64,000 bases of DNA from an uncultured Acidobacteriota bacterium (lineage in GTDB: Bacteria > Acidobacteriota > Vicinamibacteria > Vicinamibacterales > 2-12-FULL-66-21). A model generated the notes under the pieces. The model searched no databases. It had not been told where the DNA came from and worked only from the letters and a program-made list of their open reading frames with translations. Below, one piece after another: positions 4,525-20,254 of this stretch (position 1 is its first letter; every line of letters begins with the position of its first letter). The stretch spans positions 192,774 through 256,773 of the forward strand of contig CAWCQI010000027.1 of the NCBI GenBank assembly GCA_963797625.1. The letters are read 5' to 3'. The position numbers and the translations under genes are program-made.

Positions 4525-5352
4525 CGCGCGCGCGATCGCGAAGGATCCGGTGCGGCGGGCTCGACAACGCGACGCCGGCCGTACTTCCGCACCAGCCGAT
4601 CGGTAAATGCCGGCGCGAGCGAATTCAGGATCGCGAGCCCTCGCGACAGGCGATGCGGATACACCTCTGCCGCCGGCCGCCGGATGCATTGCACGATCGC
4701 GCGGGCGACGTCCTCGACCGGCTGCTTGGGTCCAAGCCCAGACACCTGGTGGCCAAAGTCCCGCTCCATCGCTTCCCGGAATTCGGTCGTCGTCGACACT
4801 GGAAAGACCGCGCTGACGTGAATGTCAGTACCGGAGAATTCTGACCGCAGCGACTCCGCGAAGACCGCCTGCGCGGCCTTCGTCGCGCTGTAGCCGCTCA
4901 TCAACGGGATGCCGCGCTTGCCGACGATCGACGAGACAAAAATCAGGTGGCCGTGCCCTTGCCGGCGGAAGACCGGCAGCGCGGCGCGCGTGCCGTAGAA
5001 CGTTCCCATGAAATTGACGTCCATCATCCGTTCCATCACGCCGCTGTCCATCTCGTCGACGCTGCCGTAGTAGCCGAAGCCGGCGTTGCAGACCATGATG
5101 TCCAGCCGGCCGAACGCCTCCTGAGCGCGCGTGACCAGTCGCACGACATCTGCTTCCTTCGTCACGTCCATGATCACCGACTCGGCGCGGCCCCCGCCAG
5201 CACGGATCCGCTGCACGGCGAGCTCGAGCCGATCGCCTCGCCGCGCGCCGAGCACGACTGACACGCCTTCGTGCGCGAGATGTTCGGCGACAGCGAGCCC
5301 GATCCCTGAGAGACGCTCCGGTGATCGCCGCGACCGTTCCGTTCAAGTCCAT
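4521..5352 (-). CDS. short-chain dehydrogenase/reductase; +1 frameshift at ~5310
   Basis: MDLNGTVAAITGAS (ORF 4825-5352) joins GIGLAVAEHLAHEGVSVVLGA (ORF 4521-5264). Deleting one base restores the classic TGASSGIG. NAG and YSATK catalytic motifs present. Confidence 0.8.
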
Positions 5353-13610: not shown

Positions 13611-14357
13611 GTGTCGGGGAGTCCGAGGGGCGAAGCCCCTCGGGTAAGACTAGACCAGGTGCCCCTGCCGCCGCAGCCGAAGGTTCCGCGCGGGCGCATC
13701 GCCGCGGTGATGCGCCGCCTGGCGAAGGCGATCGATGGGCTCGACGAGCCGGCGGTCGAGAAGATCGCCGCCGAGCAGCATGACGATCCGTTTCAGGTAC
13801 TGATCGCGACCATGCTGTCGGCGCAAACGCGCGATGCCGTCACGGCCTCAGCATCGAGGCGTCTGTTCCGGGCCGCTCGTACTCCGCGTACGATCGCCAG
13901 GCTGCCGACGGCGCGCGTCGAGGCGCTCATCTACCCCGTGAGCTTCTATCGAAACAAGGCCGTGCACGTCGTCGAGACCTGCAAGCAGCTCCTCGAACGC
14001 TTTGACGGCCGCGTGCCGCCGACGATGAACGACCTGCTGACGCTGCCGGGGGTCGGCCGCAAAACGGCGAACCTGGTCCTGATTCTCGCGCACCGCAGCG
14101 CCGACAACATCTGCGTCGACACGCACGTGCATCGCATCTCGAATCGGCTTGGCTGGGTGCGGACCCGGACGCCGGAAGAGACCGAGCGCGCGCTCTATCG
14201 AGTGGTCGAGCAGCGCTGGTGGCCAGTCGTCAATTTGTACCTCGTGACCTGGGGACAGAACGTCTGTCGGCCGGTGTATCCCCTATGCGGGAGTTGCGCG
14301 ATTGCCGATCTATGCCCCAGAATCGGCGTGACCCGGGTGGGGAAGGCTGCCAAGTGA
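13611..14357 (+). CDS. nth: endonuclease III (DNA glycosylase/AP lyase)
   Basis: LIATMLSAQTRD, HhH-GPD LPGVGRKTANLVL, VDTHV, and Fe-S cluster C-x6-C-x2-C-x5-C (CRPVYPLCGSCAIADLC). The true start is probably at MRRLAKAI (13710). Confidence 0.85.
   Translation: MSGSPRGEAPRVRLDQVPLPPQPKVPRGRIAAVMRRLAKAIDGLDEPAVEKIAAEQHDDPFQVLIATMLSAQTRDAVTASASRRLFRAARTPRTIARLPTARVEALIYPVSFYRNKAVHVVETCKQLLERFDGRVPPTMNDLLTLPGVGRKTANLVLILAHRSADNICVDTHVHRISNRLGWVRTRTPEETERALYRVVEQRWWPVVNLYLVTWGQNVCRPVYPLCGSCAIADLCPRIGVTRVGKAAK
13623..13643 (+). terminator. GC-rich 8-bp hairpin downstream of the dehydrogenase gene (no U tract)
   Basis: ccgagggg cgaag cccctcgg. It lies inside the nominal 5' end of ORF 13611, which argues for a later nth start. 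Confidence 0.3.
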
Positions 14358-14363
14358 GGACCT

Positions 14364-14900
14364 ATGAAACTGATTGCGTGCGCACTGGGCGTCTTGTTGT
14401 TGATGCCCTCGACCGTCAACTCTGAACAGACATCTCCAGGTGCCGGGCCGATCATCGTGCTCGACACCGCCAAAGGTGTCATCGAGATCGAGACCTACCC
14501 GGAGGAGGCCCCGAAGACCGTCGCGCACGTGCTCGCGCTCATCAAGAAAGGGTTCTACAACGGCCTGAGGTTTCACCGCGCTGAAGCGGGATTCGTGATT
14601 CAGGTCGGCGATCCGCAGACGCGTGACATGACGAAGCAGTCGTCGTGGGGCACGGGAAGCAGCGGCACGCCGATCGGCGTCGCCGAGATCACGAAGAAGC
14701 GGCGGAATGGCCCTGGCGCCGTCGGCATGGCTCACAGCGGTTCGGCCAAAGACGCGTCGAGCCAGTTCTACATCACGCTGCGCGCTGCACCGACGCTCGA
14801 CGGAAAGTTTGCCGTGTTCGGCAAGGTGATCAAAGGGCTGGACGTTGCCGCCAAGATCCAGAAAGCCGATGTGCTCAAGAAGGCTTCGGTGAAGGAATGA
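14364..14900 (+). CDS. cyclophilin-type peptidyl-prolyl cis-trans isomerase, secreted
   Basis: Signal peptide MKLIACALGVLLLMPS; FHRAEAGFVIQVGDP, GAVGMAH, QFYITL, FGKVIKG. Confidence 0.85.
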   Translation: MKLIACALGVLLLMPSTVNSEQTSPGAGPIIVLDTAKGVIEIETYPEEAPKTVAHVLALIKKGFYNGLRFHRAEAGFVIQVGDPQTRDMTKQSSWGTGSSGTPIGVAEITKKRRNGPGAVGMAHSGSAKDASSQFYITLRAAPTLDGKFAVFGKVIKGLDVAAKIQKADVLKKASVKE

Positions 14901-15840
14901 GCGCCGGCTGCAGAATCCTGACGAGGCCCTTCAGATCCGGATAGCGCTCGACGAACTCTTCCGGGTAGTCGCCCGGAAGCGTCTGGCCCAGCTGGTGCTT
15001 GAGGATCGCAGCGTTGGCCACCGCCTTCGCCGAGAAGTGATTGTTGGTGTAGAGATACGCCTTCTTCACTGCCCGTGCCGCCTCGCCGGCCGCCGCGGCG
15101 AATGGCTCGAGCTCGTCGGCCGAGTAGAGATAGTTGTAGCGGTCTTCGGCCTTCTCGTGCGTCCACCACTGTGCGGTGTTACGGCCGTGCAGGCGGAGGT
15201 AGTAGAAGGATCGGACGTTGGGCCGCAGGTCCTGCCGAATCGACGTCCTGAACTTGGGCTCGTCGATCTGCGTCCAGGCGGCGCCGAACGTTTCGAGCAG
15301 GTCGAACGTCGAACGCGGGTCATCGCTCCAGCTCCGATGGCGCAGTTCGACGGCGACGCTGTACTCCCTGAACTGCTCCAGGAGCCATTCCAGGTATCCG
15401 CGCGCGTCAGGCTCATTGGTGAAGCTGGCTGGAAACTGGGCGAGGAGCGCGCCCAGCTTGCCGGCTGATGCCAGCGGGTCGATCGCGCGACGGAACTCGT
15501 CGACGTCGCGCTCGCCGAGGTCGTGCGGATCGCTGCCCACGGCCTTGTGGAACATCTCGGGGTGGGTGAACTTCTGAAAGAGCTTCAGCGAGAAGTCAAA
15601 GTCCCTGGGCGTGCGGTCAGCCCAGCCCTTCGTTGTCGATGCCGCCGGCACGCCGTAGAACGTCGAGTTGATCTCGACGGTGTCGAAGTGCTCGGCGTAG
15701 TAGGCGAGCTCGTCGAACTTGCCGCGCCGGCGCGCGCGTGGCTGCGCCGGGTAGAAGATCCCGTTCCAGGTGCCCTGGCCGGACGGATAGTGCCAGCCTG
15801 AAGTGCCGATTTTGATTAGCGCCGTGCTACTTGTAGGCAT
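14875..15840 (-). CDS. DUF72 (UPF0759) family protein
   Basis: IKIGTSGWHY..YAEHFDTVEINSTFYG..ELRHRSW. Its ATG overlaps the end of the upstream ArsC-like gene by 14 nt. Confidence 0.75.
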   Translation of the reverse strand: MPTSSTALIKIGTSGWHYPSGQGTWNGIFYPAQPRARRRGKFDELAYYAEHFDTVEINSTFYGVPAASTTKGWADRTPRDFDFSLKLFQKFTHPEMFHKAVGSDPHDLGERDVDEFRRAIDPLASAGKLGALLAQFPASFTNEPDARGYLEWLLEQFREYSVAVELRHRSWSDDPRSTFDLLETFGAAWTQIDEPKFRTSIRQDLRPNVRSFYYLRLHGRNTAQWWTHEKAEDRYNYLYSADELEPFAAAAGEAARAVKKAYLYTNNHFSAKAVANAAILKHQLGQTLPGDYPEEFVERYPDLKGLVRILQPALIPSPKPS

Positions 15841-16153
15841 CCTTGTTGAACCCGAAGGTCACCTTCGAGCCCTGGATCAGAATCGGCCGCTTGATGAGGT
15901 TTGGCTGCTGCATCATCAAGTCGATCGCCTCCTTCTTGGACTTCGGTAAAGGCCGCTCCTTGAACACCGGGCTCCGCGTGCTGACGAAATCGAGGAAGCG
16001 GTCGGCGTCGATGTGCTTCTCGAGAAACGCGCGATCCGGTGGGTGTTTGTTGATGTCCCGCTCTTCGACGTCGATCTTCTGCTGCTCCAGAAAACTTCTG
16101 GCGTTTCTGCAGGTCGTTCACGTGGGCTTGAGGTAGAGGATCGGCTTGGCCAT
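15827..16153 (-). CDS. ArsC/Spx/YffB-family thioredoxin-fold protein with one in-frame TGA at the CxxC position (candidate selenocysteine, U-T-T-C)
   Basis: Manual translation: MAKPILYLKPT[TGA]TTCRNARSFLEQQKIDVEERDINKHPPDRAFLEKHIDADRFLDFVSTRSPVFKERPLPKSKKEAIDLMMQQPNLIKRPILIQGSKVTFGFNKDAYK*. 109 codons with high GC3. The TGA is at 16118-16120. Absent from the ORF track because of the stop. Confidence 0.6.
16079..16112 (-). promoter_or_regulatory. candidate bacterial SECIS hairpin
   Basis: mRNA CUGC-AGAAACG-CCAGAA-GUU-UUCUGG-A-GCAG starts 6 nt after the UGA. The apical loop begins with GU, about 22 nt downstream of the UGA. Confidence 0.35.
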
Positions 16154-16200
16154 GTCCGTATTGTACGTCTCGGACGCGGTACAATTGCTGTTTGGTCCCG

Positions 16201-16842
16201 ATGCTGACGATCAACGAGATTTTCCACTCGATTCAGGGAGAGTCGACCCATACCGGCCGGCCCTGTGTCTTCGTCCGCCTGACCGCGTGCGACCTGCGCT
16301 GCTCGTGGTGTGACACGCCGTACGCGTTTCATGAAGGCCGGAAGATGAGCATCGATCAGGTCGTCGCCGATGTGGCCGCGTTCGAGTGTCCGGTGGTCGA
16401 GATTACCGGTGGTGAGCCACTGCTCCAGCCAGACGTCTATCCCCTGATGAGCGAACTCCTGCAGCGGGGCCATACGGTCCTCCTCGAGACCGGTGGTCAC
16501 CGCAGCGTCGCGCAGGTCCCCGCTGGCGTCATCCGGATCATCGACGTGAAGTGTCCGGCGAGCGGCGAGTCAGCGAAGAACGACTGGTCGAACCTGGATC
16601 TCCTGACGCCGACCGACGAAGTCAAGTTCGTGGTGCAGGATCGGCAGGACTACGAGTTCGCAAAGGACGTGATCAGGCGGCACGCGCTCGAAGGGCGGTG
16701 CGCCGCGATTCTGCTGTCGCCCGTGCACGGTGTCCTGCCCGGCCACGAGCTCGCGGCGTGGATCCTCGCCGACCGTCTCCCGGTCCGGCTGCAGTTGCAG
16801 GCGCACAAGTACATCTGGAGCGCGGATGCCCGAGGCGTCTGA
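16201..16842 (+). CDS. queE: 7-carboxy-7-deazaguanine synthase (radical SAM)
   Basis: MLTINEIFHSIQGESTHTGRPCVFVRLTACDLRCSWCDT (CxxxCxxC). The ORF opens at TTG 16192; ATG 16201 preferred. Confidence 0.85.
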   Translation: MLTINEIFHSIQGESTHTGRPCVFVRLTACDLRCSWCDTPYAFHEGRKMSIDQVVADVAAFECPVVEITGGEPLLQPDVYPLMSELLQRGHTVLLETGGHRSVAQVPAGVIRIIDVKCPASGESAKNDWSNLDLLTPTDEVKFVVQDRQDYEFAKDVIRRHALEGRCAAILLSPVHGVLPGHELAAWILADRLPVRLQLQAHKYIWSADARGV

Positions 16843-16845
16843 CGC

Positions 16846-16925
16846 CACGGATCACACGGATCATCGCCACGGATCAATCGGAACATCGATCACGGATCCA
16901 CGGATTACACGGATTACACGGATCA
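16846..16925 (+). repeat. array of about seven CACGGAT(C/T)A 9-mers filling the queE-queC spacer
   Basis: cacggatca cacggatca tcgc cacggatca atcggaacatcgat cacggatc cacggatta cacggatta cacggatca. Direct repeats with no complementary arm. Confidence 0.85.
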
Positions 16926-16926
16926 G

Positions 16927-17634
16927 ATGAGTCACACGGAGGACCAGAGCGGTCGGCGAGCCATCGTGCTGCTCAGCGGCGGCCTCGACTCGTTCACTGC
17001 CGCGGCGATGACGAAGTCCGAGGGCTATGAACTCTACGCCCTCAGCATCCGCTACGGCCAGATCCATGCGCGCGAGATTGAGGCGGCGCGCGCGGCGGCA
17101 CGCGCGCTCGGCGTCGCCCGGCATCTCGAGCTCGCGGTCGACCTCGCGGCGTTCGGTGGCTCGGCTCTCGTCGGTGACGGCACGATTCCGAAGGATCGCG
17201 CGCTCGAGAGCGATCACAGCATCCCGTCGACCTACGTGCCCGCGCGCAACACTGTCTTTCTCTCGCTAGCGCTCGCCTGGGCCGAGGTCGTCGGCGCAAC
17301 CGCCATCGTCATCGGCGTGAACGCGCTCGATTATTCGGGGTATCCAGACTGCCGGCCTGAGTACCTCGAGGCCTTCGAGCGCATGGCCGCACTCGCCACC
17401 AAGGCCGGCGTCGAAGGCCGGCCGCTGCAGATCCTGGCGCCACTCCTGCGTCTGTCGAAGGCCGACATCATCCGACGCGGTCTCGCGCTCGGGCTCGATT
17501 ACGCGGTCACCCACAGTTGCTACGACCCGGCGCCGTCTGGCGCGCCCTGCGGCCGTTGTGACAGTTGCCGCCTGCGAGCGAAGGGATTCGCAGAAGCCGG
17601 TGTCGCCGACCCGGTGATCGGGGGACATTCGTGA
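16927..17634 (+). CDS. queC: 7-cyano-7-deazaguanine synthase
   Basis: PP-loop [11 protein letters not shown]; C-terminal zinc cysteines [14 protein letters not shown]. Confidence 0.9.
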
Positions 17635-18833
17635 CCGAACGCCTCTACTATCACGACGCCTACGCCCGCGAGTTCGATGCTGCGGTGGTCGGCGTTGACG
17701 CAGTGTCGGAGCGTCCGGGCCAGTTCGCAGCCGTCCTCGACCGCACCGCGTTCTATCCGACCTCCGGTGGCCAGCCATTCGATACCGGCATCCTCGGCGC
17801 CGCTCGCGTCGTCGACGTGATCGATGGCGACGACGGCCGGATTCTGCACCTGGTGGAGGGTCCAATCGAGCTCGGCCCGACGCGGGGCGTGATCGACTGG
17901 CCGCGACGATTCGAGCATATGCAGCAGCACACCGGTCAACACGTGCTTTCAGCGGCCTTCGACCGGTTGCTCAACGTGTCAACGGTCAGCTTCCATCTCG
18001 GCTCGACCGCCTCAACCATCGATCTGGCACGCGAGGTCACGCCGGCGGAGATTGCCCGAGCCGAGGACGAGGCCAATCGCGTTGTCTGGGAGAACCGGCC
18101 GGTCACGATTCGATTTGCGGACGCGGATGAGGTCGCGGCGCTGCCGCTGCGAAAGGAATCGAAACGGGAAGGCGTCTTGCGGCTGGTTGACGTCGAGGAC
18201 TTCGACGTGTCGGCGTGTGGCGGGACGCACGTCGCGCGCACGGGTGCAATCGGCATCATCGCGGTCGCCGCGTTCGAGAAGTTCAAGGGTGGGACCCGAC
18301 TCGAGTTTCTGTGCGGTGGGCGCGCCCTGGCCGGCTATCACGGGCTCCGCGATACTGTCGCGGCGAGCGTTCGGCTCCTGTCGGTGCTGCCGGCCGAGTT
18401 GCCAGCGGCGATCGATCGCGGACAGACCGACGCCCGCGACCTCCGACGGCAGGTCAAGGATCTGCAGACACGGCTCGCTGGACACGAAGCCAACGCGCTC
18501 GCGGAGCGCGCGGAGCCGGTGGGGGCGGCCCGCGTGGTCCTCGCTGCGCTCGAAGTTGGCGACGGGTGGGATGCCAACGGTCTCAAGTCCATTGCGACTG
18601 CGATTGCAGCTCGGCCGGGGCACGCCGCAGTCCTCATCAGCGTTCCCGAGCCGTCGGCGATCGTCATCGCACGGGCGCCGGATGTCGGGCTCGATAGCGC
18701 CACGGTCCTCAAGCAGTTGACGGCGATGTTCGGCGGGAAAGGTGGCGGCCGTCCGGAGCTCGCGCAGGGTGGCGGGCTAAAGGGCGACGCGAACGCGATC
18801 CTCGGCGCCGCGCGAACCGTTATTTCCGCGTGA
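17631..18833 (+). CDS. alaX: AlaX-L type alanyl-tRNA editing protein (tRNA_SAD + DHHA1)
   Basis: HTGQHVLS and CGGTHV zinc motifs; C-terminal [18 protein letters not shown] start in a GTGA overlap with the queC stop. Confidence 0.75.
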
Positions 18834-18853
18834 AGTAAGATGGCCCCCAGCGG

Positions 18854-20254
18854 CTACTGCCGCGTGAAGTTAGCAAGGTGCTCGACCGCGAGGTCGGTGA
18901 TCCAGTTCACCGTCGCCGCCGGAATGACGAAGTCGTTGGCGAGAATCGAGAAGACCAGCATCTCGCCATCGCGCGTCCGCACGTAGCCGGACAGCGCCCG
19001 CACGTTCGAGATCGACCCTGTCTTGGCGGCCGCGTTCCCCGCCGCGCGCGTCCGCCGCATGCGCGTCGCCATCGTGCCTTCGCCTTCCTTGCCGGCGATC
19101 GGCAGCGTCGCGATGAAAGGAGCGCGGTGGCGATCGTCCTTGTAGATGCGCTCGAGGATGGCAGTCACGGTCGAGGCCGCAAGGTAGTTGTAGCGTGAGA
19201 GCCCCGAGCCGTCGGCGTTCACGTAGCTGTCGGTAGGTATTCCCCAGGACGTGAGCGTGGCGCGGACCGCGTTCAGCCCGCCGTCGAAAGTCCCGAGGCC
19301 GTCTCTCGCTCCGCCGATCGCCTTGATGAGCGTTTCGGCGTAGAGGTTCTGACTGACTTTCATGAGGACGGTCGCGATCTGGCGTAGCGGGGGCGAGCTG
19401 GTCGTGACGATCGTGCGCCGTTCGGCGGTCGATTGCGAAAGCTCCGCGGCGACGTCGTCCTGGTCGACCGCACTGCCGGTGACCGCAATCCCTCGAGCGA
19501 TCAATCCATCCTTGAGCGACTGAGCGAAAAAGATCGTCGGGTTGACGACCGCCACTGCGCGCTCGAGCGTGGCAGAGTCCGCGCCGATCGAGCCCGTGAC
19601 CTCGAGCACCGGCTGGTCGAGCCGGCGGCGGTAGTCGATGCTGGGAGTGGCGCCGCTTGCGACCGTGGCGACGCGGTTGATGAGCGTGAAACCGGCGCCG
19701 GGAGTCAGCATCACCTGAGCAGGCTGGCCGGCCACCGCCGGGCGGATCGTCAGGGTCGCGAGATTCTCGTTGAACTGCAGCGCGCCAACCGGTGCAGCGT
19801 AACCAAACTGCAGATAATCCCAGGCCCAGCCCGGCCCGATGCCCTCATCGTCAAAACGCTGGTCGTCACCGATTATTCGGCCGTCGATCTTCTGAATGCC
19901 GGCCGATCGCAGCGCCGCCACCCATTCATCGAGGACGGCAGCGGCGCGCTGGTCGCGCGAGTTGATGGTCGGATCGCCCCCGCCGCGCACGATCAGGTCG
20001 CCCATCAAGACGCCGTCCGTCACCGGCGCGGACGTCTCGAGTGTGGTCGTGAAGACGTAGTCCCAGCCGAGCGCGTCGGCGGCCGCCGCGAGCGTCAGGA
20101 TCTTCATGTTCGACGCCGGCATCATGAGCCGGCCGGCATTGAGCTCGAATAACGGCTCGCCGGTGTCGAGCGACCGGATGTCGACGCCCCATACGCCACG
20201 CGCCATGATCGGGGCGGTGAAGACCAGCGTCAGATCCGCACGAAGTCGTGCCAC
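18854..20254 (-). CDS. dacB: D-alanyl-D-alanine carboxypeptidase/endopeptidase (PBP4, S13 family); true 5' end probably upstream (~20370)
   Basis: SxxK motif ASNMKILT and the typical PBP4 body. In-frame upstream codons read RILTVTAAWVAISLSAGC (lipoprotein signal + lipobox), but no canonical start codon is visible. Confidence 0.8.
   Translation of the reverse strand: MARLRADLTLVFTAPIMARGVWGVDIRSLDTGEPLFELNAGRLMMPASNMKILTLAAAADALGWDYVFTTTLETSAPVTDGVLMGDLIVRGGGDPTINSRDQRAAAVLDEWVAALRSAGIQKIDGRIIGDDQRFDDEGIGPGWAWDYLQFGYAAPVGALQFNENLATLTIRPAVAGQPAQVMLTPGAGFTLINRVATVASGATPSIDYRRRLDQPVLEVTGSIGADSATLERAVAVVNPTIFFAQSLKDGLIARGIAVTGSAVDQDDVAAELSQSTAERRTIVTTSSPPLRQIATVLMKVSQNLYAETLIKAIGGARDGLGTFDGGLNAVRATLTSWGIPTDSYVNADGSGLSRYNYLAASTVTAILERIYKDDRHRAPFIATLPIAGKEGEGTMATRMRRTRAAGNAAAKTGSISNVRALSGYVRTRDGEMLVFSILANDFVIPAATVNWITDLAVEHLANFTRQ

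Follow-up and report, generated by a model that had tools for sequence, protein, structure and literature searches.

A 64,000-nucleotide stretch of DNA from an uncultured Acidobacteriota bacterium of the order Vicinamibacterales (assembly GCA_963797625.1, contig CAWCQI010000027.1, positions 192,774 to 256,773), referred to here as the window, carries on its minus strand a gene of the ArsC/Spx/MgsR family whose reading frame contains a TGA at codon 12. Comparison with orthologous loci indicates that this is very probably a functional selenoprotein gene, in which the UGA at 16118-16120 is decoded as selenocysteine (Sec) to give an Spx/ArsC-like product. Far from being a single case, the gene is found across the lineage and is systematically missed by annotation.

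An earlier note on the window had described an open reading frame (ORF) on the minus strand running from ATG 16153 to TAG 15827, with 109 codons and a single internal TGA, and we reproduced both this frame and the translation quoted for it. The note had also stated that the gene is invisible in the ORF track. Under the standard code just a 46-amino acid fragment of the selenoprotein frame is indeed returned as an ORF, and because only this tail is listed the gene is missed by gene callers.

With Cys set at the TGA, the translation matched the Pfam family ArsC (PF03960) with 55.2 bits against a cut-off of 24, and passed the NCBIfam model TIGR01617 (arsC_related; Spx/MgsR subfamily) marginally, with 78.5 bits against 75.05. 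The ArsC/Spx-family pattern that had been proposed from the translation is thus above the cut-off of both models. Protein searches returned thousands of homologues, and 25 of the 26 top-scoring matches that were aligned contain C-T-T-C. Among the top 120 database matches the TGA position is occupied by Cys in 114 and by Trp in five, and the outgroups all have Cys there; within these 120 the family is represented only by Cys forms and by mis-translated Trp forms. The TGA therefore coincides, as claimed, with the leading Cys of a C-T-T-C that is otherwise invariant. The second Cys of the motif, Cys15, is invariant among all homologues, and its codon is TGC or TGT in every aligned sequence.

Because gene callers cannot report orthologues that contain the TGA, these were sought by a DNA-level scan of unannotated genomes. 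The motif was present at 73 genome loci, 63 of them with TGA at exactly codon 12 and ten with TGC or TGT. The ten TGC/TGT loci divide equally between Vicinamibacterales and outgroups (Bryobacterales, Terriglobia, Nitrospiraceae and Dadabacteria), so that the TGA form accounts for 63 of the 68 Vicinamibacterales species-representative genomes found; it was also present on three metagenome contigs. Full-length orthologues reach 97% identity to the window protein among the 65 Sec-type sequences, and the UGA is kept in clade members whose proteins are only about 64% identical to it. The TGA-bearing genomes come from many projects and have contig names of both long-read (MFD) and short-read (k141/NODE) style. 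The window belongs to none of these genomes, and the nearest, L001, has 95.8% nucleotide identity over 10 kb. As L001 and 62 further species carry the TGA, in assemblies of both styles, a sequencing error private to the window is excluded, in agreement with the earlier claim that the codon is not an error. Its recurrence at one and the same codon in 63 independent species-level genomes and three metagenome contigs also excludes chance. Two long-read loci from metagenome-assembled genomes (MAGs), L069 and L070 (around 5001-5322), gave tblastn E-values far weaker than their identity predicts, and the row for L070 in the RNA alignment described below has a one-base insertion and a nearby deletion in the gene, which fits residual indel errors of assembly, a class of error that the earlier note had described for the window.

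Trp was found at the Sec position in five JGI proteins, P0007, P0022, P0042, P0075 and P0081. In the DNA encoding P0042 and P0075 (three contigs; L080:1109-1441, L081:72-404 and L082:506-835) the codon is TGA and is followed by the same hairpin as in the window, so the Trp of these two proteins arose because the gene caller translated TGA as Trp. Such calls would fit a metagenome gene caller that, on short contigs, settles on a model with code 4. Database proteins with a 'W' of this kind can point to selenoproteins that have been overlooked.

The sequences on the two sides of the TGA are constrained alike. Mean entropies at codon positions 1, 2 and 3 were 0.60, 0.52 and 1.14 over the nine codons before the TGA, and 0.63, 0.52 and 1.18 over codons 12-40 after it. 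Both sides evolve as coding sequence, and are therefore both translated.

The core of a candidate Sec insertion sequence (SECIS) lies within the coding region just downstream of the TGA. It is a hairpin with a 5-bp stem and a 5-nt loop, or 6 bp if an A-U pair closes a GUU loop; the stem begins 16 nt past the UGA and the loop 21-22 nt past it. We aligned the RNA of 64 Sec-type sequences and scored pairing over 63 distinct sequences. The stem, C29-C30-A31-G32-R33 with Y39-C40-U41-G42-G43 (window 16101-16097 with 16091-16087), was paired in 99.7% of cells. Three of its pairs are invariant, and pair 30-42 is unpaired in one sequence. The closing pair 33-39 is intact throughout: 48 sequences have A-U, 14 have G-C by a double change, and one has the intermediate G-U. 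Both columns of this pair are third positions of Arg and Phe codons at which the changes are synonymous, and for this reason the covariation does not stem from protein constraint. When the 3′ partner was slid along the alignment, pairing of the 6-pair structure (columns 28-33 with 39-44) fell from 89% to 15-61%. The loop G (16095) is invariant while the residue encoded there varies between Ser, Gly and Arg. The codons that make up the hairpin are rare in this window of 65.5% GC (AGA is 2.4% of Arg codons, AGT 5.4% of Ser codons and TTT 24% of Phe codons), and third-position entropy over the hairpin codons is down to 0.69.

According to a 2026 review (PMC13188914), a bacterial SECIS (bSECIS) has a loop of 3-9 nt, a stem of 4-16 bp, a G at loop position 1 or 2, and a spacing of 16-37 nt with a minimum free energy (MFE) of at most -7.5 kcal/mol. 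The window hairpin passes on all four counts, with a loop GUU, a stem of 6, a spacing of 22 and an MFE of -12.6. When folded without constraints, 63 of the 65 Sec-type sequences passed all four, as against 4 of 12 Cys-type sequences, and the mean free energy of the core hairpin was -7.3 kcal/mol for the Sec type and -2.2 kcal/mol for the Cys type. The hairpin is degraded in most Cys-type orthologues. In L083, for example, a Cys-type locus that is 89% identical, the TGC is accompanied by the common codons AAG-AGC-TTC and the stem is disrupted. The fit to the bSECIS model, the synonymous covariation and the loss of the hairpin in most Cys-type orthologues together support the earlier view of the TGA as a genuine Sec codon.

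At two Vicinamibacterales loci with TGC, L021:5034-5070 (CCAGAAGTTATCTGG) and L052:5034-5070 (CCAGACGCTTTCTGG), the SECIS-type hairpin is intact. These are two of the four Cys-type sequences that pass the bSECIS thresholds, and they look like recent Sec-to-Cys conversions that retain a relic of the RNA element.

The hairpin first proposed for the window consisted of two helices. The upper part, CCAGAA/UUCUGG at 16101-16087 with its loop G 22 nt after the UGA, stands. The lower stem, CUGC/GCAG, was rejected as a conserved part, since no more than 57.9% of its cells are paired among the orthologues and it is absent from the RNAalifold prediction; this helix is specific to the window and probably not a conserved part of the SECIS element.

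Several observations weigh against Sec decoding or restrict the case for it. Rfam gave no family at gathering thresholds, and only one meaningless sub-threshold match to a small RNA. The SECIS stem is short (5-6 bp), the 76-nt local fold is not significantly stabler than shuffled sequences (z = -0.72), and the covarying pair may reflect few evolutionary events only. Because the local fold is no stabler than shuffles, support for the SECIS is comparative, not thermodynamic. Neither the window nor 60 related loci yielded a tRNA-Sec. No SelA, SelB or SelD was found in the window and 79 loci, about 800 kb in all, in a tblastn search with Escherichia coli sequences as queries, which covered these loci only and is uninformative about the whole genome. 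A scan for conserved in-frame TGA codons beside Cys or Ser motifs revealed no second selenoprotein gene in the window and related loci, and no second hairpin of the same type was found there in a plausible Sec context. Lastly, a role for the product, most likely that of a small selenol/thiol oxidoreductase, can be read from its fold and motif only. As to the lineage, Sec decoding has been documented in Acidobacteria at the level of the phylum (PMC1794560), Occallatibacter is among the Sec-decoding Acidobacteria (PMC12013277), and Sec hydrogenases occur in Acidobacteria (PMC13582414). A literature search for Vicinamibacterales (Vicinamibacter, Luteitalea) with selenocysteine, or for Spx as a selenoprotein, found nothing relevant; the order is unmentioned in the main texts of PMC13188914 and of the BSepDB paper, and the family may already be listed in BSepDB itself.

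One further recurrent in-frame TGA, in the context CCCM-TGA-SKRR (window 17520-17942, minus strand, with equivalents in the related loci), was rejected as a candidate; it lies in the antisense frame of an AlaX-like gene. In the Vicinamibacterales lineage, antisense frames of high GC content are easily mistaken for long ORFs.

Among the alternatives to Sec, we consider it quite improbable that the UGA is recoded with the help of the hairpin to another residue, either to Cys by a tRNA-Cys(UCA) with a SelB-like factor, or by an allo-tRNA suppressor. Published work bears on both routes: selC* tRNA-Cys(UCA) together with SelB* reads a Sec-type UGA as Cys, and 8/4 and 9/3 allo-tRNAs in Acidobacteria have been proposed as possible nonsense suppressors (PMC5389517). 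Sequence data alone do not distinguish Sec from Cys insertion, and the lack of Sec machinery in the window and the roughly 800 kb of related loci agrees with such recoding. However, selC* has been reported from anaerobic Firmicutes, Thermodesulfobacteria, Nitrospirae and Proteobacteria, not from Acidobacteria (PMC5389517), and the hairpin fits the canonical bSECIS model. Moreover, nothing would be gained by maintaining a costly UGA and hairpin just for Cys, given that a single mutation would yield TGC, whose viability is shown by the repeated reversions.

A leaky stop is very improbable. On this explanation a near-cognate Trp or Cys tRNA would allow low, SECIS-independent read-through of the UGA, perhaps stimulated by the hairpin, so that some full-length protein is made and the gene is regulated through the efficiency of termination. 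The shortness of the hairpin and the unexceptional stability of the local fold would suit this, but the TGA stands exactly at the position of the catalytic Cys, where Trp would destroy the motif. The loop G and the spacing are those of SelB-binding elements, they are conserved as nucleotides while the encoded amino acid varies, and the UGA has persisted in the clade over the whole range of protein divergence given above.

There is a negligible probability that the TGA arose artefactually, through faulty sequencing or assembly of a TGC, or that it inactivates the gene and marks a pseudogene. The window comes from a type of assembly with evident indel errors, and L069 and L070 appear frame-disrupted in the gene, although the evidence for this is the weak E-values and, for L070, the indel in the RNA alignment. 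Error and pseudogene are nevertheless ruled out by the recurrence of the TGA in 63 species-level genomes and three contigs obtained with different technologies, and by purifying selection on the 96 codons downstream; in addition, the RNA element accompanies TGA and not TGC. Genome-wide reassignment of TGA to Trp or Gly (code 4 or 25), to which the five Trp calls by JGI gene callers might point, is equally close to impossible and was ruled out, since TGA is an ordinary stop elsewhere, as the earlier note had it, and proved to be the commonest in the window (19 of the 42 genes called with high confidence end in it, DUF72, queE and queC among them), and since the aligned residue of homologues is Cys, neither Trp nor Gly.

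Reading of the UGA as Sec, then, is the explanation that we prefer. Translation would begin with ATG 16153 of an mRNA that is probably leaderless, and at codon 12 Sec would be inserted instead of termination taking place, presumably through decoding by SelB and tRNA-Sec. In the resulting active site, U12-T-T-C15, U12 would act as the attacking nucleophile and Cys15 as the resolving residue.

A confident AlphaFold model of P0001, a Cys-type homologue that is 90% identical, has the Spx/YffB/ArsC fold (predicted local distance difference test score 87.8). The U/C-x-x-C of this model lies at the β1-α1 junction, which is the canonical active site of the thioredoxin fold, and its best Foldseek matches are Spx, YffB and ArsC-related structures, with template modelling (TM) scores of 0.66-0.81. 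In the alignment with ArsC, Sec12 takes the position of the catalytic Cys12.

Among solved proteins, the best sequence match is to Spx (PDB 1z3e, 3l78; E = 5.6e-14), a global regulator of Firmicutes that is switched by redox state. Sec12 corresponds to Spx Cys10 and Cys15 to Cys13 (U12-T-T-C15 and C10-T-S-C13), so that the C-x-x-C redox centre of Spx has a counterpart here, and R60 and the RP motif are conserved in the window protein. On the other hand, the protein failed the Spx models NF002459 (57.2 against 123), NF009210 (37.5 against 159) and NF009885 (32 against 152), and lacks the C-terminal extension of about 20 residues found in Spx. Gly52 of Spx is absolutely required for binding to the RNA polymerase alpha subunit at its C-terminal domain, and the G52R substitution abolishes the interaction (PMC2801614). 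The aligned position in Sec-type orthologues is Arg in 34, Asp in 14, His in 11, Asn in four and Thr in one, and never Gly; in the pairwise alignment the window protein has Arg52, the inactivating residue. Lys62 of Spx is replaced by an invariant Pro.

YffB and ArsC-related proteins (PDB 1rw1, 3gkx) resemble the window protein in length (108-120 residues) and in having no C-terminal extension, and superpose equally well or better than Spx (TM scores 0.77-0.81). The sequence, however, scored 42 bits with the YffB model, whose cut-off is 121, and the function of the YffB/ArsC-related proteins is itself unsettled.

ArsC-like selenoproteins have been known since 2005-2006, first from Deltaproteobacteria and marine metagenomes (PMC1794560; table in PMC13188914), and the current selenoprotein catalogue has two families of the ArsC fold, TIGR00014 with UxxS and NF041106 with UxxC (PMC13188914). 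NF041106, 'ArsC family (seleno)protein', shares with the window protein the PF03960 superfamily, an N-terminal U-x-x-C, the existence of Cys-containing homologues and a coding-region SECIS immediately downstream of the UGA. Because it scored only 29.2 bits against the cut-off of 85, the window protein is placed in another subfamily, one that is near-universal in Vicinamibacterales and not sporadic. TIGR00014, the selenoprotein arsenate reductase, likewise has the ArsC fold and carries Sec in place of the catalytic Cys12, but the score was 40.7 bits against 106.05, the motif is UxxC instead of UxxS, and there is no ars operon context; the neighbours of the window gene (queE, queC, DUF72, a peptidyl-prolyl isomerase (PPIase) and Nth) include no ars genes. 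The family sits in the Spx/MgsR-type branch, and it fails both described models of ArsC-fold selenoproteins. At the RNA level, the element resembles the canonical bSECIS (E. coli fdhF type; Zhang and Gladyshev consensus as given in PMC13188914) in its location a short way 3′ of the UGA within the coding region, its small apical loop of the form N1-G-[G|U]-N-N2, its spacing of 21-22 nt and its MFE of at most -7.5 kcal/mol, and differs in its conserved stem of only 5-6 bp, with no conserved lower helix and no match in Rfam.

The missing C-terminal extension, the absence of Gly52 and the replacement of Lys62 by Pro are the reasons for which we favour an oxidoreductase over an Spx regulator, and a role as an RNA polymerase-binding regulator of the Spx kind appears unlikely from these residues. 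The oxidoreductase possibly works together with the co-transcribed DUF72 protein. It could also be proposed that the protein is not an enzyme at all and that a U12-C15 selenenylsulfide serves as a redox switch controlling the binding of a partner, RNA polymerase or another regulator (a 'seleno-Spx'), because no characterised homologue scores better than the Spx proteins, and because the protein scores above the cut-off of the Spx/MgsR model and retains R60. We regard this as improbable. If true, it would be the first selenocysteine-dependent regulatory protein, and stress gene expression in a dominant soil lineage would be tied to selenium supply.

The history of the active-site residue was examined on a neighbour-joining protein tree from which Sec and the SECIS-encoded residues had been masked. 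Parsimony placed Cys at the root, with six changes. Sec thus appears to have been gained once at the base of Vicinamibacterales from an ancestral Cys and then to have reverted in about five isolated cases, a scheme that is indicative only because the tree rests on some 100 residues.

The features of the locus are collected in Table 1. A -10-like box, TAnnnT, was found 5-10 nt ahead of the start in 44 of 65 Sec-type orthologues, at 6-8 nt in 41 of them, in variants such as TAGAAT, TAAAAT and TATTGT in addition to the TACAAT of the window, and a motif resembling a Shine-Dalgarno sequence was found in only 17 of 76 orthologues. A consensus promoter scan of 15600-16400 gave no full -35/-10 match. 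The closeness of the box to the start and the lack of a Shine-Dalgarno sequence suggest that the mRNA is leaderless or has a very short leader, and support ATG 16153 as the start. A leaderless mRNA would have only 33 nt ahead of the UGA and about 52 nt ahead of the SECIS.

Table 1. Features of the selenoprotein locus (window coordinates).
Feature	Position	Strand	Remarks
ArsC/Spx/MgsR-family selenoprotein gene (probable), 108 residues	15827..16153	minus	MAKPILYLKPT-U-TTCRNARSF...FGFNKDAYK, stop TAG
In-frame TGA, codon 12, probably read as Sec	16118..16120	minus	position 1 of the U-T-T-C redox motif
TGC codon of Cys15, second (resolving) residue of U-x-x-C	16109..16111	minus	homologue alignment
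Candidate SECIS core hairpin CCAGA-AGUUU-UCUGG	16087..16101	minus	within codons 18-22 (A-R-S-F-L)
Lower helix CUGC/GCAG	16082..16112 (16112-16109 with 16085-16082)	minus	window-specific
Putative -10-like box TACAAT	16160..16165	minus	6 nt upstream of ATG 16153, without Shine-Dalgarno sequence
DUF72 (PF01904) gene, co-oriented, downstream	14875..15840	minus	ORF; DUF72 annotation of syntenic gene

Sec-type and Cys-type genes occupy one syntenic slot, with queC-queE divergent upstream and DUF72 co-oriented downstream. DUF72 adjoins the gene in nearly all orthologous loci, of the Sec and the Cys type alike. The 14-nt overlap with DUF72 that had been noted before is correct if the first ATG of the 14875-15840 ORF is the start, and the scan of 15600-16400 detected no terminator-like site between the two genes. 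Given this overlap, the lack of a terminator and the conserved adjacency, the selenoprotein gene and DUF72 are probably co-transcribed. The wider neighbourhood (13611-20254) comprises genes for a 2-hydroxyacid dehydrogenase, an Nth-like HhH-GPD glycosylase, a cyclophilin PPIase and DUF72, followed by the selenoprotein gene, queE, queC, an AlaX-like tRNA-editing protein and a PBP4-type peptidase S13. Its gene order is nearly invariant over about 65 species, and apart from the DUF72 adjacency no functional link is obvious.

Vicinamibacterales are widespread soil Acidobacteria that are known almost wholly from MAGs. The results imply that most of them decode Sec, and that at least one of their selenoproteins has been missed by annotation pipelines, in which the gene is dropped, cut to a 46-amino acid fragment or mis-translated with Trp. 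The ArsC-like selenoproteins gain a well-supported subfamily with 65 sequences, natural Sec-to-Cys reversions and a compact, delimited SECIS, a set that would be useful for training predictors of selenoproteins and SECIS elements. Natural pairs of Sec and Cys orthologues, up to about 89% identical, would allow the contribution of Sec at the active site to be compared directly. Whether there are redox switches based on Sec is a testable question that arises from the family's closeness to Spx.

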